Source of the DNA: Halarcobacter sp.
Lineage (GTDB): Bacteria > Campylobacterota > Campylobacteria > Campylobacterales > Arcobacteraceae
Direction: 5' to 3'
DNA length: 64,000 nt
Assembly: GCA_963676565.1 (NCBI GenBank)
Contig: OY781089.1
Coordinates: 224,001 to 288,000 of the forward strand
In this document: piece by piece, positions 31,120-53,245 of the stretch
Layout: each line of letters begins with the position of its first letter
Numbering within the stretch: position 1 is the first letter of the stretch
Position numbers and translations under genes: made by a program
Notes under the pieces: model-generated
Seen by the model: the letters and a program-made list of their open reading frames with translations, nothing else
Databases searched by the model: none
What the model was told of the DNA's origin: nothing

Positions 31120-34100
31120 TTAAAGATCTGGGTCAATAGATACATCTTCATCTATTAAGATTTTGATGTTTGAAGCTCCATCTGTTCCTTGATAAACATT
31201 AAATATTTCACCATTTATCTCCTCTTTACCTTGAGAAGTCCAGTTAGAATCTCCACCTTCAAGTGTTACTTTGTCGTCACTATCACCAAAGATTTTTAAC
31301 TCTTGATCATCATCAATAACTAAATCATCTACATTTATTTCTAAATTATTTGCATGAGAATTAGTCATATCAACGGCATCAGTATTTGCTGATAAAACTC
31401 CACTTAAATCAATAGTATCTGCATCTACTAAATCAATAACATTTTCAGTTTGTGTTGGTGTAAGATCAACTTCAATAGTTACATCTACTGTTGTACTATC
31501 TCCATCTTCATCAGAAGCTGTTACACTAAATAGTTTTGAAGTATCAGTACTAAACTCTGAAGATTTAGCAGTATATGTATAATCTCCTGATGTAAAATCA
31601 AATGTTAGTGTACCATCACCATCTAATTCTACTCCAGAAGAAGGGAAGTTTGCACTTGTATATGCATTTCCATCAACTTCTATACTATCAATAGAAATTT
31701 CACCATTTCCTTCTGAAATATTTTCTAAGACATTTCCATTAACAGAAGCTGTAACTGTTCCTGCTAGTACATTTCCAAGTGTTGAATCATCAGTTACCAT
31801 AAGAACTTCATCTCCATCTTGAACTTGAACAATTTTAAGTGGACCCTCTGTTGCTCCTGAACCTACACCAATTACATTTAATTTATCTATATTATTTGAT
31901 ACATAATTAGACCATTCAACTATTGTATGATCAGAATCTTCATCAATTCTCCAACTATCGTTATTTGGATTACCATCAGATAAGAAATATGCAATAGTTG
32001 AATCAGCATCATGTCCATTAAAGTCAACATCCATAGTTTTTTCTAAACCTAGATAGTAATTTGTGGCATGTTCAGATAAATCATGGCTAACTAGATGTGC
32101 AAATGTATAATTTGAACCAGAATATACTAAATCATCATGATTGTTCATTGACAGATCATTTAAAAATGCGATAGCTTGAGAAGTACTCATCCATCCAAAA
32201 TTTGCAGAACAAGAGTTGAATAGTGTTAAGTTAACTTCAGTTTCACCATTTGCTGCATAAGCTTGAATTGTTGAGATAACTGATGCTTTTGCAATTTCAA
32301 ATCTTGTAGTCCAATTATCATTGCTATCTTTTACCCCATCATTCATAGAACCAGAAACATCTAAAGTAAATAATAGATTTGTAGTAGCATCACCAAATAC
32401 TAAACTATTAGTTTCGTCATAACTCACTGGTAAACTATCAGGAACAATCAATTTAAACTCACTACTTATTTGTGCTTCAAGTGGACAATTATCTGGATCT
32501 GCAGGAGTAATTTCTCCATTTAAGCTCTCTTCTGATTTAGCAGTAATTGTTAAAACATACTCATCAGGAGTAATTCCATCAGGTACTGAAACTTTAATAG
32601 CATCCATATCCCAAGATTTTACATCTACATAATCAAGTGCTGCAGTTGCAGTAAATGTATGTGCTCCATCAGAAATAGTAAACCCTTCAGGTAAATTATC
32701 AACAATTATACTTTTAAAGCTTTCTGAACCATCTAAATCAACTAATTCTGAAGAGATTGCAAAATAAGCATCATTACCACTTTCAATAGTTAACTCAGTT
32801 TGACTTGATACTAACTCAGTAAATCTTACATCGTGAATTAAGAAGTCATCACCCTCTTGTTTAGCTGAAATTCTAATCTCATCAAAACTTCCACCATTTG
32901 GTAATGCAAAAGTATATGGTCCATCAATAGTATCAGTTTGTGCTGCATCATAGTGTTCTTGAGAACCTATTTTTACACCATCTTTATAGAAGTCTACAAT
33001 TGCAACTTCTCCATCACCGTCACCATTGTCATAGCTATGTTTCCATGCATAACTAACATCTACACTAGTTAATGCATTTTCAAACTCAATAGCAATAACC
33101 TCAGAACCTTCTCCTGGATGATAGTTTATCTCTGTATCATTACCTGGATTTTCACCACTTGGAACAGTTGATTGAACACCAAAACCATCATGTGTTGTGC
33201 CTGTTACAATTGAAATTGGTGCTTCATCTAATTCTCCATCTCCATCATTGTCATAATGGTAATATGCTTTAACTGTATATCCACCACTTGTATCATTTAC
33301 ATTAGTTAAATCAATTGTTGTAGTATTTTCTGTACTTCCTAAAACACTTAATGTTGGAGCATCTGCTACAGGTGAAACGTCAATAGTCATAACTGAAGAT
33401 GTAGAAGTCCATGTTGCAGTATTATCTGTAGAGATACTAAAGTTAAACTGCGCATAATCATTTTGTTGATCACCAGTTCCTGCATCATGATATTCATCTC
33501 TTCCAGATTGATGTAAATCAGGTAAAAATGTAAGTTTTCCATCATCTATATCAGTTGAACTAATCTCAATTGGTGCAGCTATTGCTACTCCATTTAATAA
33601 TATAGTCCCAAGTACTGGTAAAGAGTCTATTCTAACAGTAGTTGCATCACTGTCGAAATCATCTAAAGTAAATGTATAGCTTATATCTTCACAAGTTATT
33701 ACATTTGTATCAATTGGTGTATTAATTGTGATATTTAAATTAGCAGTTGCACTATCTCCATCTCCATCTGTAACAGTATAAGGAATAGTTAATGTCTCAA
33801 TCCCAGAATCTTTATCAAGCTGTGAAATTGTATATCCTGGTGTTGCTGTATCTAATCCTGTAGCTGTAAGTTTAATAATTGTTTCACCTAAACTATTTTT
33901 ACCAATTAAAGTTGTAAGATCATCAGATACTCCATCATTTGCATAACTCCAAGTAACTGTTCCAACTGAACCACTTACAATTATCTCATCGAAACCATCA
34001 GATAAGTTTTCATCTCCCCAATTAAAGGCTTCTTTATCACCATCAAGTTTAACTCCAGTTCCATCAGCTGCTCCATCTGCACCGAAGCTAAAGTCAAATG

Positions 34101-37100
34101 TGCCAGATGCATTTACTACAGTTCCTTGTAAAGTAGCCGATAAATCTGCTGGATTATCAACTTCAAGTACATTTGACGAAACTAATGACAAGTAAGTTGT
34201 ACTTACATTTGTTCCTATTCCTACTGAATAAACTCCTGCAATATTATTTGATGAATCATTTACAAATGTATTCCAAGTATTTAATGTAGGAGAATCTACA
34301 TAAGGTGTGCCATCATGATCTTCAAATCCATCTACATGGTTACCACTTGTATAATCGTTTGGATTATAAGTTGTAGAGTCATTCATCTCTACAGTTGGGT
34401 AACCATCTGATAAGAAATAAACATATGTATCTCCACCATTTGGTGAAACTGAATAGCTACCTACTGTTTCTTGTAGTGCGTCTTCATAGTTTGTCCAACC
34501 ACCATCACTTAAATTAGTTAAATATGTAGTAACTTCAGATGCGCTCATCCAAGTTCCATTTCCAAATGCAGTTGTACTAAATGTATTAATTTGAATCAAT
34601 ACATCTCTTCCTTGTGATTCATACTCTGAAATTAGATCTTCAATTGACTCTTTTGCAATCTCTAATCTAGTTTTAGATGTTCCTGCTACATCATTATCCA
34701 TACTTGATGATACATCTAATGTAAATACTAAATTAACAGGTTTTGAATCTACTTCAACTGTTTTTGAAACATCATTAGCAGATGCGATATCATCTGCAAT
34801 CTCAATAGTAATCGTATCTGTTGCTTTAGTTCCATTTCCATCTATTATCTCTACTTCTAAAGATAAATCTGATAATAAATCTTCTACATTCATTTGTTGA
34901 TGATCTACATTCTCATGTAATGTAAATGTATACTCACTATTTGCTGGGTCTAATGAAATAGTAAATATTGGTGTCCCATTCTCATCTACTCCTGTTATTG
35001 TTTGATTATTATTAGAATACTCTAATGTTATATCAAGCCCTTCTGCTGTTATTGATGTTGTTTGATTCCCTGTAAATTGAATGCTTCCTGCTCCATCATC
35101 TCCAAAGTCAAATGTCAATGCTTTTGTTTCTGTATATACATTATTATATCCATCTGTATCAGTTGTATTGATTGATGGTAATGCATCTTCATCTACAAGT
35201 GCATCTTCTACTGTAATTGTTGGGATATCATCTACTGGAATAATTACATCTATTTCTAAGTTAGCTGTTACGCTATCTCCATCTCCATCTGTAATTGTAT
35301 ATGGTACTTTTAGACTCTCTATACCACTTTCTTTATCTAACTGTGTTACTACATATTTTGGAGAATTTGTATAAATATCTGTTGCTTCTATTTTTACAAC
35401 TACTTCTCCATTACTATTTGTCCCTGTAATCAATGTTCCATCTGCTGAAACTACCCAAGTAACATTTGTTATATCATTACCATTTGAGTCTTTTGCTGTT
35501 GGTGTTTCCCATGTAAATGCTAATTTATCTCCATCTTGTTTAGTCCCTGTTCCATCTGCTGCTCCATCTGCTCCAAATGAGAAATCTAGACTACCAGTTT
35601 CATAAACAACTGTCCCTTGTAATGTTGAAACTAAATCTGCTGGATCATCTACAATTGTTACATCACTTGAAACTTGTTCTAAATAACTTTCATTTACATT
35701 TGTTCCTATCCCTACTGCGAATACTTCTTCTATATTATTTGCTGGATTTGATACAAATGCATTCCATGCATCTAATCTTGCTGCATCTATATATCCTGTA
35801 TCTGCAGTCGCACCATCTATTCCATCTTGGTCATTACCATCTGTTACATCACCTACTGTTGAAGTTGAATCATCCATCTCTACAGTTGGGTAACCATCTG
35901 ATATAAAGTATGCATAAGTTGTCCCTGTTGGAACTGTTGAACTTTCATAAGCTGTTTGAGTAACTGCTAATGCATCTTCATAATTTGTCCAACCATTATC
36001 ATTTAATGTATTTAAAAAGGCTGACAATTCACTCGCTGTCATCCATTTCCCATTTTCTGCTGAATCTGCACTTGTACTAAATGTATTTACTTGTATCAAT
36101 ACATCTCTTCCTTGTGCTTGATAATCTGCTACTACTTGTTCCATTGCTTCTATTGCAATCTCTAATCTTGTTTGTGATGTACCTGCTACATCATTCCCCA
36201 TACTTCCTGATACATCTAATGTAAATACTAAGTTTACTGCTTCTGGATTTAAATCTATTGTTGTCTCTGTATCATTTGCTTCTGGCATATCATCTTCAAC
36301 AACAACATTTAATGTTCCTGTATCAGTTGCACCTTTTGCATCTTTTACATATACTCCTACATCAAATCCTACTACATCTTCAACTGAATTTGTTGGATGA
36401 TCTATTTGATTTAATTGAGTAACAGTATAGTCACCATTACTATCAACTTCGATTTTAATAACCTCTTGCCAATCTGGATTTGAAGTTGTTCCGTTATTAA
36501 TTTTACCAACTAATGTATCCGTATCCTCTCCACTCCACTCTACTGTTTTACCTTCTGAAGTTAATGTCGATGTTGGTGCTGTTAATTTAACTGTTAAAGC
36601 ATCACCATCTGGATCTGATGCAACACTTCCTGTTTGAACTACTTTATTTGTTGTATCATCCCCTGCATTTTCACCTGTTGTATCTTTTAATCCACCAGAT
36701 AAACCTTCATCAGAAACTCTTACACTTGCATCTGTTACAACTGGTGGCTCATTATCTGTTTTACCATCAATTGTAATTGTTAATGTTGTTGTACTTGTAT
36801 CCCCATCACTATCTGTAATAGTATATGTAAACTCTTCTGTTAATGTTTGTCCATCATCTAATGCTAATACTCTTGAATCTGCATTATCTAAATCATATGT
36901 ATATGAACCATCTGAATTTAGTGTAATCTTTCCATATTCACCATCAAATGAACTTCCTACATTTCCTGATACTGGATTTGTTGTATCATTACCTTTTGCA
37001 ACTCCCGTTACATATACTGGTGCATCATCACTATCTGCTCCAATATCATCTGCTACATCTCCTGTTTGTCCATTTCCATAAACATTACCACTTAATGTAT

Positions 37101-40100
37101 CTGTTTTCTCATTCATAGATCTTACGTCTGCATTTGCTACTGGTACATCATCTACAATTGTTACTGTTAATGTTCCTGTTGCGTCATCTCCATCTGGATC
37201 TACAATTTTTAATGAAATTTCATCTTTTATCTCATTATTATTTGTTGGATGATCTAGGTTATCTTTTAATGTATATTCATAACTAACTAATCCTGTATTC
37301 TCATCATAACCTGTAATAATTAATGTTCCTTTTACAGTATCAATTGGCGAAGAATTCGTATTATTTGTATCTAATAATTCTGCTTTTGTAAATGTTGTTC
37401 CACCAATTTCAACTTTAGTAATTCCATCAGGAGAAGTAATTTTAAATACTCCTGTATCTTTTTCACTATCATCACTTGAATCATCTAAACCTTTTTCATA
37501 TACAATTGATGAAGGATCATTTAAATCTGGATTTGGATCAATTGTTGGTTTATCATCAATTCCTATATTTAAGTTAGCGCTTGCACTATCACCATCTCCA
37601 TCTGTTACAGTAAATGGCATTACTAAATCATCAATCCCACTATTTTTGTCTAATTGTGTTATTTCATATTTTGGATCAGTTGTAATATCTTTTGCTTCTA
37701 CTTTAATTACTACATCACCATTAATTTTTCCTACAATTGTTTGCCCATCTGATGATACTGTCCAATCAACACTTACATCATTTCCATCTGCATCTTTTGC
37801 TGTTGGTGTTTGCCATTCAAATGCTAATTTATTATCATCTAATTTAATCCCTGTTCCATCTGCTGCTCCATCTGCTCCAAATGAAAAGTCTAAGTCTCCT
37901 GATTTATTAATCATTGTTGATAATAATTGTGTAGATAAATCATCTGAATCTACTATTGTTGTATCTGAAGAGATTTGTTTTAAGTATGTGTCATCAGTCA
38001 TTTCAATTCCAACGGCATACACACCTTGAATATTATTTGCAGGATCAGAAACAAATGCATCCCAAGCATCTACTCTTGCTTGATCTAAATATGTGTCTTC
38101 ATTATTAAGGAAGGTATATGGATTATCATCTACATTATCTAAGTTATAACTTCCTGTTGTATCGTCTGGATCTACTGTTCTATCATCTAACTCTGTTGTT
38201 GGAACTCCATCTGATAAGAAATATATATATGTATCACCCTCTACTGGTGTTGTATAATGTTGCTGTGTTTCATATAATGCATCTTCATAGTTTGTTAATC
38301 CTGTTGCAGTTAAGTTTAATTTACTATTTAAATCTGCAGAATCAAACCATCCTGAAGTAGAATTTACTTCTGAACTAAATGTATTAATCTGTACATTTAC
38401 ATCTCTTCCTTGATTTTCATATTCACTTACTAAATCTTTAATTGCATTAATTGCTTTTTCTAATTTACTTCCTGAACCATTACCCATACTTCCTGATACA
38501 TCTAATGTAAATACTAAATTAATTGGTTCTAATGTTGTATCTATTGAAACATTAGTATTATTAGCAGATGCGATATCATCTGCAATCTCAATAGTAATCG
38601 TATCTGTTGCTCTAGTTCCATTTCCATCTATTATCTCTACTTCTAAAGATAAATCTGATAATAAATCTTCTACATTCATTTGTTGATGATCTACATTCTC
38701 ATGTAATGTAAATGTATACTCACTATTTGCTGGGTCTAATGAAATAGTAAATATTGGTGTCCCATTCTCATCTACTCCTGTTATTGTTTGATTATTATTA
38801 GAATACTCTAATGTTATATCAAGCCCTTCTGCTGTTATTGATGTTGTTTGATTCCCTGTAAATTGAATGCTTCCTGCTCCATCATCTCCAAAGTCAAATG
38901 TCAATGCTTTTGTTTCTGTATATACATTATTATATCCATCTGTATCAGTTGTATTGATTGATGGTAATGCATCTTCATCTACAAGTGCATCTTCTACTGT
39001 AATTGTTGGGATATCATCTACTGGAATAATTACATCTATTTCTAAGTTAGCTGTTACGCTATCTCCATCTCCATCTGTAATTGTATATGGTACTTTTAGA
39101 CTCTCTATACCACTTTCTTTATCTAACTGTGTTACTACATATTTTGGAGAATTTGTATAAATATCTGTTGCTTCTATTTTTACAACTACTTCTCCATTAC
39201 TATTTGTCCCTGTAATCAATGTTCCATCTGCTGAAACTACCCAAGTAACATTTGTTATATCATTACCATTTGAGTCTTTTGCTGTTGGTGTTTCCCATGT
39301 AAATGCTAATTTATCTCCATCTTGTTTAGTCCCTGTTCCATCTGCTGCTCCATCTGCTCCAAATGAGAAATCTAGACTACCAGTTTCATAAACAACTGTC
39401 CCTTGTAATGTTGAAACTAAATCTGCTGGATCATCTACAATTGTTACATCACTTGAAACTTGTTCTAAATAACTTTCATTTACATTTGTTCCTATCCCTA
39501 CTGCGAATACTTCTTCTATATTATTTGCTGGATTTGATACAAATGCATTCCATGCATCTAATCTTGCTGCATCTATATATCCTGTATCTGCAGTCGCACC
39601 ATCTATTCCATCTTGGTCATTACCATCTGTTACATCACCTACTGTTGAAGTTGAATCATCCATCTCTACAGTTGGGTAACCATCTGATATAAAGTATGCA
39701 TAAGTTGTCCCTGTTGGAACTGTTGAACTTTCATAAGCTGTTTGAGTAACTGCTAATGCATCTTCATAATTTGTCCAACCATTATCATTTAATGTATTTA
39801 AAAAGGCTGACAATTCACTCGCTGTCATCCATTTCCCATTTTCTGCTGAATCTGCACTTGTACTAAATGTATTTACTTGTATCAATACATCTCTTCCTTG
39901 TGCTTGATAATCTGCTACTACTTGTTCCATTGCTTCTATTGCAATCTCTAATCTTGTTTGTGATGTACCTGCTACATCATTCCCCATACTTCCTGATACA
40001 TCTAATGTAAATACTAAGTTTACTGCTTCTGGATTTAAATCTATTGTTGTCTCTGTATCATTTGCTTCTGGTGTGTCATCATCAATATTAATATTTAAAC

Positions 40101-43100
40101 TTCCAGAAACTTTATCCCCATCTGCATCTTTTACATCATATGTTATGGCAAAGTTTACATTGTTTTCTGTATCATCTCCAACTAAACCATCTAAAGTTGG
40201 ATGAGATATTGGTGCTTCTTGTGTAACTGTGTAATCACCCGTTGCAGAATCAACAGTTATAGTTGCAACTAAAACAGGATTTGCTCCACCTTGATCTTGA
40301 TAAATTGATAATAAAGATCCATCAGCATTAGGAGTTGCTGTTAATCCATATGAATTGCTATCAATACCTGTAAGTTCAACACTTCCTGCCCCATCTGTCC
40401 CAAAATCAAAATTTAATGTACCAGTTGCATTTGAAGAATCTATATCATCTTCAATTCCTCCAGCATTTCCATTTGGCATAGTATCATCATCTAATTTCAC
40501 TAAATCATTTAACCCTGCACTTGGTCCATCATCTTTTATATTAAATACACCTACATCTACACTTGTATCACTTGATGCTAATGCTACTGTTGCTGTATCT
40601 GTATCTCCATCTGCATCTGTTACTGTTTGTGTTAAGTTTATTGATACATCTTCATTATTTAGTTGTCCTAGTACTAGGCTCTCTGTATCATTATCACTTG
40701 TTGTATCTGAATGCCATACATTCTTTGTTTGTGTAAAGGTTACTGTTGATCCTGTATTACTAATTGTAAAGTATGTTGTTGTCCCTACTTTACCTACTAT
40801 CTCTCCATTCTCTTCACTTAATAAAATCTCTGCACCTTTTGCGCCATTAACACCTAATGCATATAATCCTGATGCTACACCTGATACTGTTGTTCCTGTT
40901 GCATCTGTTAAGCTTAGTGAGTAACTTGTACTTCCTGCTCCATCTGTTCCATATACTTCTGATGCTGTTACTCCACCTACTCCTACTACTTTAAATAAGC
41001 TTGAGAAGTCAGCTTCTGATGAGTTCGCGCTTACATTATCTGCTGGATTCGCTTGTGCTCCTGCACTCTCATCTACTGTTAATGATATATTTGTAACTTT
41101 TGCGGCATCTACTGCTGCATCATTTAAATCTGCACTTGGTCCATCATCTTTTATATTAAATACACCTACATCTACACTTGTATCACTTGATGCTAATGCT
41201 ACTGTTGCTGTATCTGTATCTCCATCTGCATCTGTTACTGTTTGTGTTAAGTTTATTGATACATCTTCATTATTTAGTTGTCCTAATACTAAGCTCTCTG
41301 TATCATTATCACTTGTTGTATCTGAATGCCATACATTCTTTGTTTGTGTAAATGTTACTGTTGATCCTGTATTACTAATTGTAAAGTATGTTGTTGTTCC
41401 TACTTTACCAACTATCAATCCATTCTCTTCACTTAATAAAATCTCTGCACCTTTTGCGCCATTCACACCTAATGCATATAATCCTGATGCTACCCCTGAT
41501 ACTGTTGTTCCTGTTGCATTTGTTAAGCTTAGTGAGTAACTTGTACTTCCTGCTCCATCTGTTCCATATACTTCTGATGCTGTTACTCCACCTACTCCTA
41601 CTACTTTAAATAAGCTTGAGAAGTCAGCTTCTGATGAGTTCGCGCTTACATTATCTGCTGGATTCGCTTGTGCTCCTGCACTCTCATCTACTGTTAATGA
41701 TATATTTGTAACTTTTGCGGCATCTACTGCTGCATCATTTAAATCTGCACTTGGTCCATCATCTAAGAATCTAATATCTAAAGACTGTTCACTTGTTGCA
41801 GAAACAGTATCTTTATCTGCATCAGTTATTGTTAATTTTACTTTAATTAAATCATCTAAATTTAAAGGTGTCTCTTCATGATCTAAAATACCATCATTAT
41901 TTACATCTGCATTTACATCTGCATCATCAGAATGTTCCATAGCCTGGTATTGAGTAACTGTAACTTCACCAGTAGCACTATTAATTGAAATTGTAAATAC
42001 AGGATTTGTAGTTGTATCTCCATCAACATACCCAGAAAAAGATCCATCATTATTCTCTTTTAATAAGATTTCAGTAGTATCTCCAGTTAAATACAATCCT
42101 GTGCTAACTCCATCAGTCGCTGCTAGGCTATATTCTTCTGTTACACTACCTGTATCATCAGCACCTATAGAATAAGTAAATAAACCAGATATTGCACTTG
42201 CTGAAATTGTTGCACTTGTTTGTCCTACAATACCAGTATCAAAATCAGATTCATCAAGCTTAACTAATAAATCACTTTGATTATTCTTTATAGTTGGTAC
42301 ATCATCTTCAAATTGAAGAGCATTACTAATATCAACATTAGCCACTCCTGTAGCAGTATCTTCATCACTATCAGTAACTACTGCCGTTGCATATAAAACT
42401 ACATTTCCATCAGCTAATCCAATAATCTCATCAGTACCACCTACAATATTATCTGGAGCATTATGATCTATCTCTTCATATTGAGTTAAACTAACTTCAC
42501 CTGAAACCTCATCAACACTTACTTTGAATACTTCTATGCCAGAAGTTGTTGTACCTATAATATCTCCATTAGAATCTACTGATACTGTAATTGATTCACC
42601 AGCATGTGTTAAACCAGTAGTTGCAGTTTTAACTGCTAAAGTATAAGTAATTGTACTGCTTGCAGAAGCATCATTATCAGCTCCAATACTTACATTACTA
42701 ATATCAAAAAGAGTTGAGAAAGAAGCTTTTGCAGTACTTTCATTAGATCCAATTGTTTCTTCATCTAAAGTTGTTAATGTTGGGATATTTTCTTCATTAT
42801 ACTGAATATCTGCACTTGGAGTGTCATCAACAATATTAAGATTTAACTCTGCATCAGCAATATCACCATCATTATCTCTTACAGAAATAGCAATTGTTGA
42901 AGAAGGCAAAATACTTGAACTATTGTTAGAAGCATCTCCATCATCTAATTCTCCATCATGATTTATATTATCTAATAAAGTGTACTCATATTGAACTTCA
43001 TACAAATTTGTAGATATTTGAGTGAAGCCTGTAATTACAATTTCTCCTTCTCCGACATTAATTGCATTTGAAGGAGTAGTATTTGTTGCAAGTAACTCAG

Positions 43101-43869
43101 TTAATGTAAAATTTACACCAGCAACAGTTACCAAAGATATCCCATCTGGAGAATCGATTGAAAAACTACCATTGTAAATATCGCTATTATCAGATGAACT
43201 TAAAAGTCCAGATTCATAAACAGTTCCAGCATCTCCAATAATCAATACGGGAGAAAGATCACCCTCTGCGGCATCAACTTCTCCACTAGGGTTTGCTGGA
43301 TCAAAAGTTGTACCTCTTCCTCTTCCAACTACACTATTTACTTGTCCAGATGGATCAATAGGGTCATTTGTTAGACCTCCTGTATCACCAACTTCACCTC
43401 CAGCTGCTGCAGCATCTAATTGTTCTGCTAAAGCACCGAAACCATCAATAACAATACCATCAAGAAAAGTAGGATCAGGATTATTCGTATCAGCTAATAA
43501 TTCTTTTAATTGGCTAATAACATTATCACCTTCAAAGTCATAATTTAAGGCAGTTTCATTAAGTTCTTTAAGACCATCTTCGTCATTCATAATACCAAGA
43601 ACAGTTTTTTCTTTTTCATTAGCAATGCCATCAGAGGCCTTGATGAAATCTGCCATATTTTCTAAAACTATAACAATTCTTTCACCATTACCAGCAAAAA
43701 CAAGTTCAATAGTACTTTCACCATCTTTTAGATCTAAAGTATATTGTCTGCTTCCATCTGAGTTATCAAAGTAAAACTGTTGTCCAGCACTAGGAGAGAA
43801 GGTCGTATTCTCTGAAATCTCTTTCGTTTCAACTAGACCATTTGGATTTTTTATTATTAACTTAATCAT
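31120..43869 (-). CDS. Giant type I-secreted repetitive adhesin (LapA/BapA-like), 4249 aa, with five vWA domains
   Basis: Very acidic; many Ig-like/T1SS-143-type repeats (D.DGD...I.DD.P); five FTLDVSxSM MIDAS motifs; no Sec signal; T1SS-type C-terminus; cognate T1SS genes upstream. Confidence 0.92.
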   Translation of the reverse strand: MIKLIIKNPNGLVETKEISENTTFSPSAGQQFYFDNSDGSRQYTLDLKDGESTIELVFAGNGERIVIVLENMADFIKASDGIANEKEKTVLGIMNDEDGLKELNETALNYDFEGDNVISQLKELLADTNNPDPTFLDGIVIDGFGALAEQLDAAAAGGEVGDTGGLTNDPIDPSGQVNSVVGRGRGTTFDPANPSGEVDAAEGDLSPVLIIGDAGTVYESGLLSSSDNSDIYNGSFSIDSPDGISLVTVAGVNFTLTELLATNTTPSNAINVGEGEIVITGFTQISTNLYEVQYEYTLLDNINHDGELDDGDASNNSSSILPSSTIAISVRDNDGDIADAELNLNIVDDTPSADIQYNEENIPTLTTLDEETIGSNESTAKASFSTLFDISNVSIGADNDASASSTITYTLAVKTATTGLTHAGESITVSVDSNGDIIGTTTSGIEVFKVSVDEVSGEVSLTQYEEIDHNAPDNIVGGTDEIIGLADGNVVLYATAVVTDSDEDTATGVANVDISNALQFEDDVPTIKNNQSDLLVKLDESDFDTGIVGQTSATISASAISGLFTYSIGADDTGSVTEEYSLAATDGVSTGLYLTGDTTEILLKENNDGSFSGYVDGDTTTNPVFTISINSATGEVTVTQYQAMEHSDDADVNADVNNDGILDHEETPLNLDDLIKVKLTITDADKDTVSATSEQSLDIRFLDDGPSADLNDAAVDAAKVTNISLTVDESAGAQANPADNVSANSSEADFSSLFKVVGVGGVTASEVYGTDGAGSTSYSLSLTNATGTTVSGVASGLYALGVNGAKGAEILLSEENGLIVGKVGTTTYFTISNTGSTVTFTQTKNVWHSDTTSDNDTESLVLGQLNNEDVSINLTQTVTDADGDTDTATVALASSDTSVDVGVFNIKDDGPSADLNDAAVDAAKVTNISLTVDESAGAQANPADNVSANSSEADFSSLFKVVGVGGVTASEVYGTDGAGSTSYSLSLTDATGTTVSGVASGLYALGVNGAKGAEILLSEENGEIVGKVGTTTYFTISNTGSTVTFTQTKNVWHSDTTSDNDTESLVLGQLNNEDVSINLTQTVTDADGDTDTATVALASSDTSVDVGVFNIKDDGPSAGLNDLVKLDDDTMPNGNAGGIEDDIDSSNATGTLNFDFGTDGAGSVELTGIDSNSYGLTATPNADGSLLSIYQDQGGANPVLVATITVDSATGDYTVTQEAPISHPTLDGLVGDDTENNVNFAITYDVKDADGDKVSGSLNINIDDDTPEANDTETTIDLNPEAVNLVFTLDVSGSMGNDVAGTSQTRLEIAIEAMEQVVADYQAQGRDVLIQVNTFSTSADSAENGKWMTASELSAFLNTLNDNGWTNYEDALAVTQTAYESSTVPTGTTYAYFISDGYPTVEMDDSTSTVGDVTDGNDQDGIDGATADTGYIDAARLDAWNAFVSNPANNIEEVFAVGIGTNVNESYLEQVSSDVTIVDDPADLVSTLQGTVVYETGSLDFSFGADGAADGTGTKQDGDKLAFTWETPTAKDSNGNDITNVTWVVSADGTLITGTNSNGEVVVKIEATDIYTNSPKYVVTQLDKESGIESLKVPYTITDGDGDSVTANLEIDVIIPVDDIPTITVEDALVDEDALPSINTTDTDGYNNVYTETKALTFDFGDDGAGSIQFTGNQTTSITAEGLDITLEYSNNNQTITGVDENGTPIFTISLDPANSEYTFTLHENVDHQQMNVEDLLSDLSLEVEIIDGNGTRATDTITIEIADDIASANNTNVSIDTTLEPINLVFTLDVSGSMGNGSGSKLEKAINAIKDLVSEYENQGRDVNVQINTFSSEVNSTSGWFDSADLNSKLNLTATGLTNYEDALYETQQHYTTPVEGDTYIYFLSDGVPTTELDDRTVDPDDTTGSYNLDNVDDNPYTFLNNEDTYLDQARVDAWDAFVSDPANNIQGVYAVGIEMTDDTYLKQISSDTTIVDSDDLSTQLLSTMINKSGDLDFSFGADGAADGTGIKLDDNKLAFEWQTPTAKDADGNDVSVDWTVSSDGQTIVGKINGDVVIKVEAKDITTDPKYEITQLDKNSGIDDLVMPFTVTDGDGDSASANLNIGIDDKPTIDPNPDLNDPSSIVYEKGLDDSSDDSEKDTGVFKITSPDGITKVEIGGTTFTKAELLDTNNTNSSPIDTVKGTLIITGYDENTGLVSYEYTLKDNLDHPTNNNEIKDEISLKIVDPDGDDATGTLTVTIVDDVPVANADVRSMNEKTDTLSGNVYGNGQTGDVADDIGADSDDAPVYVTGVAKGNDTTNPVSGNVGSSFDGEYGKITLNSDGSYTYDLDNADSRVLALDDGQTLTEEFTYTITDSDGDTSTTTLTITIDGKTDNEPPVVTDASVRVSDEGLSGGLKDTTGENAGDDTTNKVVQTGSVASDPDGDALTVKLTAPTSTLTSEGKTVEWSGEDTDTLVGKINNGTTSNPDWQEVIKIEVDSNGDYTVTQLNQIDHPTNSVEDVVGFDVGVYVKDAKGATDTGTLNVVVEDDMPEANDTETTIDLNPEAVNLVFTLDVSGSMGNDVAGTSQTRLEIAIEAMEQVVADYQAQGRDVLIQVNTFSTSADSAENGKWMTASELSAFLNTLNDNGWTNYEDALAVTQTAYESSTVPTGTTYAYFISDGYPTVEMDDSTSTVGDVTDGNDQDGIDGATADTGYIDAARLDAWNAFVSNPANNIEEVFAVGIGTNVNESYLEQVSSDVTIVDDPADLVSTLQGTVVYETGSLDFSFGADGAADGTGTKQDGDKLAFTWETPTAKDSNGNDITNVTWVVSADGTLITGTNSNGEVVVKIEATDIYTNSPKYVVTQLDKESGIESLKVPYTITDGDGDSVTANLEIDVIIPVDDIPTITVEDALVDEDALPSINTTDTDGYNNVYTETKALTFDFGDDGAGSIQFTGNQTTSITAEGLDITLEYSNNNQTITGVDENGTPIFTISLDPANSEYTFTLHENVDHQQMNVEDLLSDLSLEVEIIDGNGTKATDTITIEIADDIASANDVSKTVEVDSKPVNLVFTLDVSSSMDNDVAGTSKTRLEIAKESIEDLISEYESQGRDVLIQINTFSTTAFGNGTWMSASEVTTYLTNLSDGGWTNYEDALQETVGSYSVSPNGGDTYVYFLSDGYPTVEMNDSTTYNPNDYTSGNHVDGFEDHDGTPYVDSPTLNTWNTFVNDSSNNIAGVYSVGIGTNVSTTYLSLVSSNVLEVDNPADLSATLQGTVVNASGTFDFSFGADGAADGTGVKLDGDKEAFNWGDENLSDGFDEIIVSGSVGTVTWSYANDGVSDDLTTLIGKNSLGETIIKLTATGLDTATPGYTISQLDKDSGIETLTIPYTVTDGDGDSATANLNITINTPIDTNVITCEDISYTFTLDDFDSDATTVRIDSLPVLGTILLNGVAIAAPIEISSTDIDDGKLTFLPDLHQSGRDEYHDAGTGDQQNDYAQFNFSISTDNTATWTSTSSVMTIDVSPVADAPTLSVLGSTENTTTIDLTNVNDTSGGYTVKAYYHYDNDGDGELDEAPISIVTGTTHDGFGVQSTVPSGENPGNDTEINYHPGEGSEVIAIEFENALTSVDVSYAWKHSYDNGDGDGEVAIVDFYKDGVKIGSQEHYDAAQTDTIDGPYTFALPNGGSFDEIRISAKQEGDDFLIHDVRFTELVSSQTELTIESGNDAYFAISSELVDLDGSESFKSIIVDNLPEGFTISDGAHTFTATAALDYVDVKSWDMDAIKVSVPDGITPDEYVLTITAKSEESLNGEITPADPDNCPLEAQISSEFKLIVPDSLPVSYDETNSLVFGDATTNLLFTLDVSGSMNDGVKDSNDNWTTRFEIAKASVISTIQAYAANGETEVNLTLFNSCSANFGWMSTSQAIAFLNDLSMNNHDDLVYSGSNYTFAHLVSHDLSEHATNYYLGLEKTMDVDFNGHDADSTIAYFLSDGNPNNDSWRIDEDSDHTIVEWSNYVSNNIDKLNVIGVGSGATEGPLKIVQVQDGDEVLMVTDDSTLGNVLAGTVTASVNGNVLENISEGNGEISIDSIEVDGNAYTSANFPSSGVELDGDGTLTFDFTSGDYTYTAKSSEFSTDTSKLFSVTASDEDGDSTTVDVTIEVDLTPTQTENVIDLVDADTIDLSGVLSANTDAVDMTNSHANNLEINVDDLVIDDDQELKIFGDSDDKVTLEGGDSNWTSQGKEEINGEIFNVYQGTDGASNIKILIDEDVSIDPDL
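34774..36285. repeat. 1512-bp internal duplication, copy A (vWA plus Ig-like units)
   Basis: Matches 38560-40071 at offset 3786; only one substitution (K/R) noticed by eye. Confidence 0.9.
38560..40071. repeat. 1512-bp internal duplication, copy B
   Basis: Matches 34774-36285; identical shadow ORFs at 35081/38867 and 35577/39363 confirm the offset. Confidence 0.9.
40515..41764. repeat. Tandem 615-bp (205-aa) repeat, two copies plus a short partial
   Basis: CTGCACTTGGTCCATCATCT recurs at 40515, 41130 and 41745; the protein copies differ at about two residues. Confidence 0.9.
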
Positions 43870-44780: not shown

Positions 44781-44817
44781 TTAATCTTTAAGGGAGGGAG
44801 AACCCCTTAAAGATTAA
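44781..44817 (-). terminator. Strong hairpin between the WG-repeat gene and the kinase
   Basis: TTAATCTTTAAGGG-N9-CCCTTAAAGATTAA, perfect 14-bp stem. Confidence 0.7.
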
Positions 44818-45578
44818 AAGTTTTCACCTCTTGAAAAAATAGACTCTGTAATCTCTTTTCCTTTAGAGTTTATATATGCTGTTTTTCCATTTAGAATTAC
44901 CTTTGCAAATCCTTTTGAAAAATTAAATGCATAATCATATTTTGGTTGAGCTAAAACATTACAAGATTCATCAATATAACCCCATTTACCATCTTTAACA
45001 GTTCTTGCAAAACCATCAACATAATTGTAAATTTCATCATATTCATCATTAATTTTAAGATTCATATCTTTTGTTATACAACCCCATTTTCCATTTGCAT
45101 TAGACTGTACAAAAGTAGCATCTGCAAAAAACTCTCTTGCTTTTCTAAATATAGGTTTTTGAACAACTTCAAATTTTTTATTCATATATCCATATTTATC
45201 ATCAACTTTAATAAGTGAAAATCCATTGAATAATTTTGAAATAGAGTCATAAATAGGTTTTACAACCATTTCATTTTTTCTATTTACAATTCCATATTTT
45301 CCATTATATTCAACTACAGTATACTCATCACCATAATAATTGTGTAACCAATGTAAGTTTAGAAGATTTGGATGTTTAGTTTTAATGTTTTTATTTTCTG
45401 CATCATCAAAACTCGACATTTCATCATAAATTGGTTTTATTACTACTTCACTATTATTTTCTAAAGTTCCATACTTACCATTTTCATTGATTATTGCTAA
45501 ACTATTTTCACTAGAATTAGAACATCCAGTAAAAACTAACAATAATATAGAACTTAAGAATAGTATTTTTTTTGCCAT
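44814..45578 (-). CDS. WG-repeat lipoprotein
   Basis: Lipobox VFTGC; repeated NGKYG/GKWG...I.P.YD...F..GFA units. Confidence 0.85.
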   Translation of the reverse strand: MAKKILFLSSILLLVFTGCSNSSENSLAIINENGKYGTLENNSEVVIKPIYDEMSSFDDAENKNIKTKHPNLLNLHWLHNYYGDEYTVVEYNGKYGIVNRKNEMVVKPIYDSISKLFNGFSLIKVDDKYGYMNKKFEVVQKPIFRKAREFFADATFVQSNANGKWGCITKDMNLKINDEYDEIYNYVDGFARTVKDGKWGYIDESCNVLAQPKYDYAFNFSKGFAKVILNGKTAYINSKGKEITESIFSRGENF

Positions 45579-45587
45579 AATTTATCC

Positions 45588-46934
45588 TTATTTATTTGGA
45601 TCTGTCTCAATTCTAAACTCAACTCTTCTTGATAATACATAGTTTTCAGTTCCATCTTCATTTAGAACAGATTCAGATGAAGATTTACCATCAGCCACAA
45701 AAGCTTTTTCAATAAATCCTTTATTTTCTACAACTGCATCATCAGTATTTCCTGTGATATATTTTAAAACTTTATCTGCTCTTTTTTGAGAAAGAACTCT
45801 ATTTTTTTCAAATTTTTCTTCAGCAGTTTTTGCTGTTCTATATCTAGATGAAGTGTGCCCTTCAACATGAACAGATGTAATTTCATTACTGTAATCTTTT
45901 AAGATATTCACATATCTTGGGAAGAAACTATTTAAAATCTCTTTATAGTTAGTAGATATTTTACTACTACCTCTTGTAAACATTAATGCTGGGTTTTTAA
46001 ATCTAAAAGTTAGAGTATCCTCATCAATTTCTGCATTCCACTGTTCAAAATCTGGTTCAAACTCTGCTTTTAAAGCATTGTATAAATCATTTAATACATG
46101 AATAGTTAAATCATCTTGGGCTTTACCTCTTTGTTTTGCTGAGTTAATAGCCATTGCCATTGCAGTATAATCACCATTTGCAATTTTTTCCTCAACTTGT
46201 GCACACCATCTATCTCCATTAATAACACCTTCAGTAATTGTCTCACCACCATCAAATGATAATTGAACTTGTCTTACATCAGCATCTAAAACATCACCAC
46301 AAATTTTTGGTGTATTATCGTTGATTACTTCATAATCATCCATAGTAATTAAGTTATAAAATTGTTCAGTAGGAGCTGCAACTTTTTCTGGTTCACTACA
46401 TTCTGCTTCAACATTTTCAGCTCTTAATAGTTTTGCAATTAAAACATCATTTGTTTTTGAAGCATAATGAAGTGGAGACATCTCATATTTATCTAATACA
46501 TCTCTTTTTGCACCATTACAAATTAATAGTTTAGACATATTTGTATATCCATTTCTTGTTGAATCTATTAATGGAGTATCTCCATATTTATCAACACTAT
46601 TAACATTTGCACCATTTTCAATAAGTTTTTCAGCAATATCAAAATGATTAAATCTTGAAGCTAAGTGTAAAGGTGTGTAACCAAACTTGTCTTTTTCGTT
46701 TAAATCAATTTTTTCATTAATAAAAAAATCAACTAATTTCATATCATTAATTCTAACAGCATCATGAATAGATGATTCTGTTAAGATATCCTTATGTTTT
46801 AAACTTGTAACGCTATCTCCATTAACAGTTGTACTAGATTTAGCTGGAACAGAAGTTGTAGAAACTTCTTTACTAGAACATCCACTTAAAACAATTAGTG
46901 TAGCAACACTAAAACCAATCAAATATTTTTTCAT
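45588..46934 (-). CDS. Lipoprotein with ankyrin repeats, an Ig-like domain and an OmpA/ZorB-like peptidoglycan-binding domain
   Basis: Lipobox LSGC; GYTPLHLA, GDTPLIDS, MSPLHYA; NDNTPKICG...NGDYT; EGHTSS...NRVLSQKRA...SRRVEF. Confidence 0.85.
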   Translation of the reverse strand: MKKYLIGFSVATLIVLSGCSSKEVSTTSVPAKSSTTVNGDSVTSLKHKDILTESSIHDAVRINDMKLVDFFINEKIDLNEKDKFGYTPLHLASRFNHFDIAEKLIENGANVNSVDKYGDTPLIDSTRNGYTNMSKLLICNGAKRDVLDKYEMSPLHYASKTNDVLIAKLLRAENVEAECSEPEKVAAPTEQFYNLITMDDYEVINDNTPKICGDVLDADVRQVQLSFDGGETITEGVINGDRWCAQVEEKIANGDYTAMAMAINSAKQRGKAQDDLTIHVLNDLYNALKAEFEPDFEQWNAEIDEDTLTFRFKNPALMFTRGSSKISTNYKEILNSFFPRYVNILKDYSNEITSVHVEGHTSSRYRTAKTAEEKFEKNRVLSQKRADKVLKYITGNTDDAVVENKGFIEKAFVADGKSSSESVLNEDGTENYVLSRRVEFRIETDPNK

Positions 46935-52525: not shown

Positions 52526-53245
52526 ATGTATAGATTTGATAAAAATAATAAAAAAAATTTTAAATTTATTCTAAATTACCTTAATATATTGTATATTGAG
52601 GATGAAAAAAACATAAAAGAAAACATTGAGAAAACCTTAAAACTGATGGTTTCAAATGTTTTTTCATGTGAAAACATTGAAGAAGCAAAAAAAATCATTG
52701 AAAATAAAAGAATTGATTTAATTATTTCAGATATTAATTTACCAGGACAAAATGGCCTTGATTTTGTTGAAATGTTAAGAGAATGTAATAATATAACTCC
52801 AGTTATTTTATTATCAGCATATACCCAAAAAGATTATTTATTGAAAGCGACAAGATTAAAGCTTGTTGATTATCTAGTTAAGCCTATAAATTTTGATGAA
52901 CTAAAAAATTGTTTATATAGAGCTTGTGAAGAGATAATTGAAAAAGGTTTATTCATAATAAGTTTTGAGGAAGAGATCTCTTACAATGTTTTACAAAAGA
53001 AACTTTATTCAAAAGATGAGAAAACAATAGATTTAACACATAAAGAGATTTTACTTCTTGAATACTTAATTGAAAACAATAATAGAGTTGTAACCCATCA
53101 AGAGATTAAGGATCATATTTGGGAAGATATTTTTGAAGCAAGCGATTCTGCATTAAAAAATTTACTTAATAAACTTAGAAAAAAAATTGGTAAAAATAGC
53201 ATTGAAAACATTTCAGGGGTTGGATTTAGAATACATTTAAGTTAA
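52526..53245 (+). CDS. OmpR-family response regulator, divergent from the T1SS operon
   Basis: YIEDE, IISDINLPGQNG (Asp intact), YLVKP, LKNLLNKLRKKI...GVGFR. Confidence 0.92.
   Translation: MYRFDKNNKKNFKFILNYLNILYIEDEKNIKENIEKTLKLMVSNVFSCENIEEAKKIIENKRIDLIISDINLPGQNGLDFVEMLRECNNITPVILLSAYTQKDYLLKATRLKLVDYLVKPINFDELKNCLYRACEEIIEKGLFIISFEEEISYNVLQKKLYSKDEKTIDLTHKEILLLEYLIENNNRVVTHQEIKDHIWEDIFEASDSALKNLLNKLRKKIGKNSIENISGVGFRIHLS

Follow-up and report, generated by a model that had tools for sequence, protein, structure and literature searches.

The stretch of DNA analyzed here, referred to throughout as the window, covers 64,000 nucleotides of Halarcobacter sp. (contig OY781089.1, positions 224,001 to 288,000 of the forward strand). 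On its minus strand lies a row of genes for, in order, a TolC-like protein, an ABC transporter, an HlyD-type protein, a lipoprotein of 448 amino acids (aa), a WG-repeat lipoprotein, a kinase-like protein and an adhesin; the subject of this report is the fourth of these, the 448-aa lipoprotein, and above all its C-terminal domain. The order of the open reading frames (ORFs) and the Pfam families of the neighbors agree with the type I secretion context given in an earlier note made from the sequence alone, and the row forms an operon for type I secretion of a giant adhesin. Coordinates are collected in the table.

The translated gene contains LYNALKAEFEPDFEQWNAEIDEDTLTFRFKNP, KEILNSFFPRYVNIL, VHVEGHTSS, LSQKRA and LSRRVEFR, and with them all of the C-terminal motifs quoted in the earlier note. 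Its N-terminus reads MKKYLIGFSVATLIVLSGC, with a lipobox ending at Cys19 that was recognized by eye and with a regular expression rather than with a trained predictor; by the E. coli rule, Ser at +2 would suggest an outer-membrane location. Lipoboxes were also seen in many relatives. Pfam matches comprise Ank_2 (122.7 bits, residues 56-143 and further stretches), Ank (76.7 bits), Big_13 (27.5 bits against a cut-off of 27, residues 202-270) and OmpA (PF00691; 36.4 bits, above the cut-off of 27.2, with the N..L...R site present). Translation and Pfam together reproduce the layout that had been proposed for the protein, namely a lipobox, ankyrin repeats, an Ig-like domain and a C-terminal domain of the OmpA superfamily. 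An AlphaFold2 model built from 20 relatives had a mean pLDDT (predicted local distance difference test score) of 84.7, with residues 2-16 helical and the C-terminal part forming an alpha/beta domain that runs from a helix at 282-299 through to the C-terminus. Foldseek matches to the ankyrin part of this model included designed ankyrin proteins.

Table. Features of the lipoprotein gene and its surroundings, in window coordinates.
Feature	Position	Strand	Basis
Accessory lipoprotein gene (ankyrin, Ig-like, ZorB2-type peptidoglycan-binding domain), 448 aa	45588..46934	-	ORF, ATG start
Signal peptide and lipobox L-S-G-C, residues 1-19, Cys19, Ser at +2	46878..46934	-	read from translation
Predicted disordered tether, residues 20-47	46794..46877	-	pLDDT <50 at residues 18-47
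Four ankyrin repeats, residues ~48-180	46395..46793	-	Pfam; model helix pairs at residues 44-179
Ig-like beta-sandwich (Big_13), residues ~190-278	46101..46367	-	Pfam; model strands at 210-278
ZorB2-type peptidoglycan-binding domain, residues 281-445, with N378, L381, R385	45600..46094	-	profiles, 8vvi_A, Foldseek, residue conservation
TolC-like outer-membrane factor, 600 aa	50609..52411	-	Pfam OEP 116 bits
Predicted C-terminal SPOR-like domain of TolC-like protein, last 110 aa	50612..50941	-	model and Foldseek
Type I secretion ABC transporter, N-terminal C39-like domain, 720 aa	48431..50593	-	Pfam ABC_tran, ABC_membrane, Peptidase_C39
HlyD-type membrane-fusion protein, 496 aa	46960..48450	-	Pfam HlyD_3 78.6 bits
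WG-repeat lipoprotein, 254 aa, conserved downstream partner gene	44814..45578	-	Pfam WG_beta_rep 125.2 bits
Histidine-kinase-like protein (HATPase_c), 265 aa	43973..44770	-	Pfam; position conserved in relatives
Adhesin, 4249 aa, presumed substrate	31120..43869	-	ORF; Pfam DUF5801 in 7 stretches, VWA_2 in 4, Cadherin_4
OmpR-type response regulator, divergent	52526..53245	+	Pfam Response_reg and Trans_reg_C; adjoins TolC gene in relatives too

The last domain of the lipoprotein is ZorB2-type and not a generic OmpA/MotB domain. The PADLOC profile for ZorB2 (PDLC00641) matched residues 281-445 with 176.3 bits (expectation value, E, 1.9e-52; profile positions 60-225 of 238), compared with the 36.4 bits of Pfam OmpA, and the second-best PADLOC profile for the lipoprotein was the ZorB1 model (120.5 bits). 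Similarly, the NCBIfam ZorB2 family NF041787 gave 139 bits, below a cut-off of 400 bits that the true ZorB2 of the same genome also fails to reach (282.6 bits), whereas the MotB family NF006508 gave 39.9 bits and the OmpA domain of TssL 33.2 bits. When the ZorB2 profile was run across the genome, the true ZorB2 scored 324.8 bits and the lipoprotein gene 178.9 bits, followed by a ZorB1-like protein at 78.1 bits and the next OmpA-like frame at 20 bits. The lipoprotein domain and the genome's own ZorB2 are 36% identical over 194 aa (E 3e-37). The best match in a sequence search of the PDB was 8vvi_A (96.2 bits, E 1.9e-26), well ahead of an OmpA-family chain (32.8 bits) and PomB (15 bits), and the same entry was the top Foldseek match of the lipoprotein model (8vvi_A/B; E 8.4e-12, 174 columns, 38-39% identity). 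The available text of PMC11890865 gives 8VVI as the ZorAB complex, of type II, from Sulfuricurvum kujiense. The earlier view of the domain as ZorB-like rather than generic OmpA/MotB is therefore upheld by PADLOC, by NCBIfam, by the PDB sequence match and by identity to the genome's own ZorB2, and in profile scores, solved structure and tree the domain does not cluster with ordinary OmpA, Pal or MotB proteins.

Residues were counted in 72 secretion-linked, 49 ZorB-type and 4 ZorB1-like outgroup rows. N378, L381 and R385 are kept in 71, 68 and 72 of the 72 secretion-type rows, respectively, and each is kept in every ZorB-type row (49 of 49) and every outgroup row (4 of 4). W299 is present in 65/72 secretion-type and 49/49 ZorB-type rows and falls in a gap in the outgroup; F337 and P339 of the FFPRY motif are present in 68 and 69 of 72 secretion-type rows, in 49 of 49 ZorB-type rows each and in 0 of 4 outgroup rows each; and S362 of the GHTSS motif is present in 72/72, 47/49 and 0/4 rows, the outgroup having N or D. 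W299, F337 and P339 thus set the ZorB1-like outgroup apart from both the ZorB2-type and the secretion-linked domains, as would be expected if the W, FFPRY and EGHTS motifs are typical of ZorB, which is how they had been read before. According to the available text of PMC11946911, the E. coli ZorB quadruple mutant Y151A/N152A/L155A/R159A lost both wall binding and defense. N152, L155 and R159 were matched to N378, L381 and R385 by motif spacing and not by alignment of the E. coli ZorB sequence itself. Decayed wall-binding domains, with GHTSS and the binding Arg gone, were observed at L012, L013, L014 and L017 (sister genus, same operon position), one of which (321 aa) is also without the Ig domain. 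Four further orthologues (G488, G489, G480 and G481) have one in-frame stop (TAG or TAA) within the domain match and may be pseudogenes or sequencing errors.

Although it carries a ZorB2-type domain, the 448-aa lipoprotein is not a ZorB, as it has neither the transmembrane helix nor the Asp of ZorB and there is no ZorA or ZorE in the window. The ZorB2 profile match begins at position 60 of 238, so the segment with the transmembrane helix and the conserved ion-conducting Asp lies outside the match, and the N-terminal 55 residues of the genome's own ZorB2 matched none of the window's frames of >=60 aa (phmmer, E<=10). The profile start and the lipoprotein signal agree with the previous reading that a lipobox, ankyrin repeats and an Ig-like domain stand in place of the membrane anchor. 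Equally, phmmer searches with the genome's own copies of ZorA2, ZorE2 and the MotA-like protein gave no match in any frame of >=60 aa of the 64-kb window (E<=10), in line with the remark that no zorA is present there. The genome's own ZorB2 (~231-234 aa) lies ~2.6 Mb from the window, flanked by ZorA2 (633.6 bits) and ZorE2 (412.3 bits).

This Zorya, at ~2.90 Mb (L009 8683-12488), is a complete type II system with a ZorA2 of 558 aa, a ZorE2 of 475 aa and a WYL-domain gene upstream. At ~2.04 Mb (L010 7036-9295) the genome has a MotA-like protein of 360 aa next to a long ZorB1-like membrane protein (396 aa) that contains a coiled-coil linker, and the gene for an ABC-F type ATPase comes next; pairs resembling this one were seen in other Arcobacteraceae (L080-L082). 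In two genera of a sister family, a ZorA2-like and ZorB2-like pair was present in 7/7 and 21/21 sampled species (L090 4732-8144, where the proteins are 873 aa and 263 aa; L015-L040), and no ZorE match adjoined the pair in 23 of the 25 loci checked. This pair is conserved like a housekeeping gene.

Relatives of the lipoprotein fall into classes that differ in length and in gene context. A word-indexed search returned 46 proteins of similar length, 43 of which have both ankyrin and OmpA Pfam domains; the named ones are the 'ankyrin repeat domain-containing protein' of Arcobacter sp. LA11, of Halarcobacter and of a Campylobacterota isolate. Relatives of shorter length (219-245 aa; identity 36-45%) are complete ZorB2 proteins, and the ten that were scanned all span profile positions ~7 to 236 with 237-322 bits. 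An exhaustive search gave 1328 representatives at E<=0.001, and the details that follow are from the best 150 of these. In the top ~35, all long (289-725 aa), the domain is C-terminal, and ZorB-sized proteins with a W-x-S-x-S-D-L-M membrane motif start at ~128 bits. Among 30 of the best 150 scanned with Pfam, 13 have ankyrin and OmpA domains (seven with Big_13 as well), and six are OEP (TolC-family) proteins that carry the ZorB2-type domain. The domain is C-terminal in three of these OEP proteins (P0099, P0152 and P0206; loci L041, L075 and L076) and N-terminal, just after the signal peptide, in the other three (P0106, P0108 and P0148; L042-L046, L070). Locus L041, from a Campylobacteraceae metagenome-assembled genome (MAG), is orthologous to the window operon (TolC, E 1e-130; HlyD, E 4e-188) and reads TolC-with-domain, ABC, HlyD and an adhesin of at least 2046 aa, without an ankyrin gene, and the Arcobacteraceae MAG loci L042-L046 have the order domain-TolC, ABC, HlyD.

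Within the Arcobacteraceae the domain was found at E<=1e-8 in 92 of 184 genomes, and 22 of the 24 other species in the window's genus are among those with a match. Some 13 of the matches are in ZorB-sized frames (207-255 aa), and most others at E below ~1e-17 are in frames of 357-464 or 570-730 aa, the size of ankyrin-type proteins or TolC fusions. In a set of 40 Arcobacteraceae loci, annotated with the window's own proteins as queries, ankyrin-type genes directly follow TolC-ABC-HlyD in 21 of 29 loci from several genera, and the WG lipoprotein gene comes next in 20 of those 21. TolC fusions adjoin ABC and HlyD genes in 6/6 loci of this set (L076 is also among the 29) and, when L041-L046 are added and three same-place loci are counted once, in 9/9 distinct loci. 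The three ZorB-sized loci (L077-L079) all have a ZorA2-like neighbor, with ZorE2 in two, and three weaker matches are long ZorB-like membrane proteins beside a MotA-like gene. In the window's genus, several genomes (L049/L050, L051/L052 and L053/L054) have two ankyrin-type copies 32-36 kb apart, one in the operon and one solo; the solo copies L051 and L053, and L069 from another two-copy genome, adjoin other ORFs of >1000 aa. Outside this family, a Desulfobacterales MAG encodes a 341-aa lipoprotein (P0045; L092 3495-4520) with a helical N-terminal part and a ZorB2-type domain. Its gene has a radical-SAM gene on one side and an unknown one on the other, and the 6.8-kb contig carries neither secretion nor Zorya genes.

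The phylogeny placed the domain with ZorB2-type domains and not with OmpA, Pal or MotB. In a first tree of 180 rows, the 50 secretion-type rows formed one clade with a support of 94 (SH-aLRT, Shimodaira-Hasegawa-like approximate likelihood ratio test), and the MotB-like and OmpA-like proteins of the same genome, tried as outgroups, sat on branches too long (6.4-6.6 changes per column) to give it a root. To a second tree, of 127 rows, context-labelled sequences were added and ZorB1-like/MotA-paired proteins served as the outgroup; here 68 of 72 secretion-type rows formed one pure clade (SH-aLRT 97, stem 0.28), and the rows outside it were P0093 and three divergent long-branched domains (one from L075, two from L076). 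Both trees are quick searches with a single support measure, from which rows >70% identical to a kept row, fragments shorter than the domain and, in the second tree only, two thirds of the ZorB rows were left out. TolC fusions fall at at least three places within the secretion clade, which indicates that the domain moved between lipoprotein and TolC more than once. In the free searches the secretion clade lies among the ZorB rows, with Campylobacterota ZorB proteins as its neighbors. In an approximately unbiased (AU) test, a tree holding all 50 ZorB-type rows together was not rejected (p-AU 0.744), the constrained tree being 20.4 log-likelihood units better than the free-search tree. A claim that the domain was taken from Zorya was dropped on this result; an origin from Zorya and a pair of sister lineages from a common ancestor, the two alternatives offered in the earlier note, would both fit the AU test.

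The TolC-like protein encoded in the window is ~150 residues longer than a plain OEP protein, and Pfam gave no match in the extra C-terminal part. A model of its last 110 residues, built from 15 orthologues, had a pLDDT of 88.4, and the top three Foldseek matches were the SPOR domains of DamX (E 8.2e-5, template modeling score 0.61), DedD and CwlC, with E <0.001 for DamX only. SPOR domains bind glycan strands lacking peptides. On the strength of the model, the TolC-like protein may carry a second, SPOR-like wall-binding module. At the same C-terminal position, some orthologous TolC proteins have a SPOR-like domain, those of L075 and L076 have a divergent ZorB2-type one, and those of L057, L062, L083 and L086 have neither.

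The N-terminus of the adhesin (window 43360-43869, minus strand; L087-L089) has 53 invariant columns in six sequences and closes with an invariant A-x-A-A-G, which we take to resemble the end of LapA-type retention modules. The genome has three LapG-like Peptidase_C93 genes, all elsewhere, with none in the window. By this analogy, the N-terminus and the peptidases fit a retained-adhesin class. The adhesin also contains very long near-identical internal duplications, noticed by eye: one block, which includes a VWA domain and spans several hundred residues, is present twice, as is a block of ~230 residues starting with DDGPSADLNDAAVDAAKV.

Taken together, we consider that the lipoprotein is probably a motorless periplasmic accessory subunit that serves as the wall anchor of a type I secretion machine for the giant adhesin. 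The domain would use its conserved N378/L381/R385 site to bind the cell wall non-covalently. The ankyrin/Ig part would dock on the secretion machine, with the TolC-like protein as the likeliest partner, the ankyrin repeats as the protein-binding module and the Ig-like domain as a spacer. The lipid tail and the flexible tether of ~28 residues that follows it would keep the lipoprotein at a membrane. In this way the outer-membrane end of the machine, holding the 4249-aa adhesin, would be fixed to the wall and become load-bearing, an action like that of the stator-anchoring half of ZorB or MotB minus the ion-driven motor. That the ZorB2-type domain works at the TolC-like channel is argued by its fusion to TolC in relatives, a 'Rosetta stone' relationship. 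A cell-wall anchor for an adhesin secretion machine had been suggested in the earlier note; gene order and the TolC fusions support the link to the machine, and anchoring itself is the inferred part.

Several observations weigh against this reading. Eight of the 29 ankyrin-type loci (L049, L051, L053, L058, L061, L066, L069 and L074) have no secretion genes within ~10 kb, and several of these eight are second copies in genomes that also hold an operon copy. About 8 of ~25 ankyrin-type representatives have an ordinary signal peptide without a lipobox, so the lipid anchor is dispensable. Four operon-position orthologues from one sister genus (G273, G352, G324 and G375) have lost both GHTSS and the binding-site Arg, and wall binding is therefore not always retained. 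Locus L076 holds both a TolC fusion and an ankyrin-type gene; thus the two forms are not simple alternatives. In addition, the 40 loci were hand-picked for long contigs and for a spread of genera and frame sizes and are not a random sample.

The same parts could be assembled differently. The lipoprotein might be an adhesin-retention receptor whose ankyrin repeats hold the adhesin by its periplasmic N-terminal plug and so tie the adhesin, and not the channel, to the wall; this would suit the conserved adhesin N-terminus with its A-x-A-A-G end (presumably LapA-like), the nature of ankyrin repeats as protein-binding modules and a gene order that ties the ankyrin gene to the adhesin gene. A predicted complex of residues 44-280 with the N-terminal 165 residues of the adhesin scored 0.00, the mark being 0.32, which counts neither for nor against binding. 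At the fusion loci L041, L070-L073 and L075, however, TolC itself bears the domain and an ankyrin protein is absent, which argues that its site of action is the channel, and we regard a retention receptor as unlikely. It could instead be a general envelope tether, a staple between outer membrane and wall like Pal or OmpA with no specific tie to secretion, as the eight solo loci and the Desulfobacterales lipoprotein, alone between unrelated genes with the same domain type, might lead one to think. Such a tether would not account for a fixed operon position in 21/29 loci across several genera, for fusions that join the domain to a secretion-operon TolC in 9/9 loci, or for the clade that the secretion-linked domains form of their own, and it seems quite improbable.

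A part in a motor or in defense, in which the lipoprotein would substitute for ZorB with a ZorA-like pentamer encoded elsewhere or act as a decoy or regulator of Zorya, is very hard to credit. It is true that the type II Zorya of the genome is complete, that a MotA-like/ZorB1-like pair is present as a second such set, and that the domain shares 36% identity with the genome's own ZorB2. Nevertheless, the helix and the conserved Asp are absent, the N-terminus is a cleavable lipoprotein signal, and in the architecture given in the available texts of PMC11946911 and PMC11890865 a protein without that helix has no seat inside the ZorA pentamer. ZorB-sized relatives, moreover, have their own ZorA adjoining in 3/3 cases checked (L077-L079).

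A more speculative scheme, and one that we think has a poor chance of being right, is that the ZorB2-type domain is older than Zorya, with one sister lineage placed on a phage-sensing ion motor and the other on type I secretion, either as the ankyrin lipoprotein or as the TolC fusion. If this were true, and if the secretion lineage had kept the wall engagement on envelope perturbation that is proposed for ZorB, the condition of the wall could feed into secretion or release of the adhesin, and the adhesin secretion system would contain a built-in wall-state sensor.

The ZorB2 subtype of the domain, previously reported from the anti-phage motor of Zorya alone, has a large group of relatives, possibly its sister group, in a different, secretion-linked machine. 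In Arcobacteraceae the ZorB2-type domain is far commoner in this secretion-linked setting than in Zorya, and the group offers a concrete handle on the origin of the periplasmic part of ZorB. Interchangeable modules, whether ZorB2-type, SPOR or both, may fix to the wall those outer-membrane channels in which megadalton adhesins are held. For annotation, a ZorB2 profile match at E 1e-52 alone is not evidence of a defense gene.

In the full-text literature covered, which leaves subscription journals outside, no paper turned up that places a ZorB-type domain in a secretion system or that has this ankyrin architecture, and no title among those listed dealt with a fusion of TolC to a SPOR or OmpA-like domain. 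In the Shewanella bpfA operon an OmpA-family gene also lies with an RTX adhesin and type I secretion genes: Sputcn32_3595, an 'OmpA-like family protein', is co-transcribed with them, and its role is unstudied as far as the available text goes (PMC3672883). SiiA of Salmonella pathogenicity island 4 is likewise a non-canonical accessory of a giant-adhesin secretion system, and its periplasmic domain, in the part of the report available, binds peptidoglycan, with an Arg mutation that lowers invasion (10.1101/641415); wall binding of the lipoprotein is a prediction. Unlike the lipoprotein, which has neither a membrane helix nor a MotA-like partner, SiiA is described as an inner-membrane MotB-like protein that conducts protons with SiiB, and no chain named SiiA was among the nine PDB sequence matches at E<=1.

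With the periplasmic domains of Pal, OmpA (C-terminal) and MotB, the lipoprotein domain has in common the superfamily fold and the N/L/R site, as given in the available text of PMC11946911. In sequence it is much less like them than like ZorB, which matches at 96 bits compared with 33 bits for an OmpA-family chain and 15 bits for PomB. It also has GHTSS at the place of GHTD, the usual form of the motif in OmpA, Pal and MotB. Type II ZorB (8VVI) is the nearest protein of solved structure: the likeness starts at helix alpha-1 and runs to the C-terminus, so that all of the periplasmic part is covered, at 36-39% identity and with the motifs W..AE, FFPRY, EGHTSS, N..LS..R and SRRVEF shared. Unlike that protein, the one described here is a lipoprotein without the transmembrane helix, the ion-conducting Asp or a ZorA/ZorE neighbor, and its gene belongs to a type I secretion operon.

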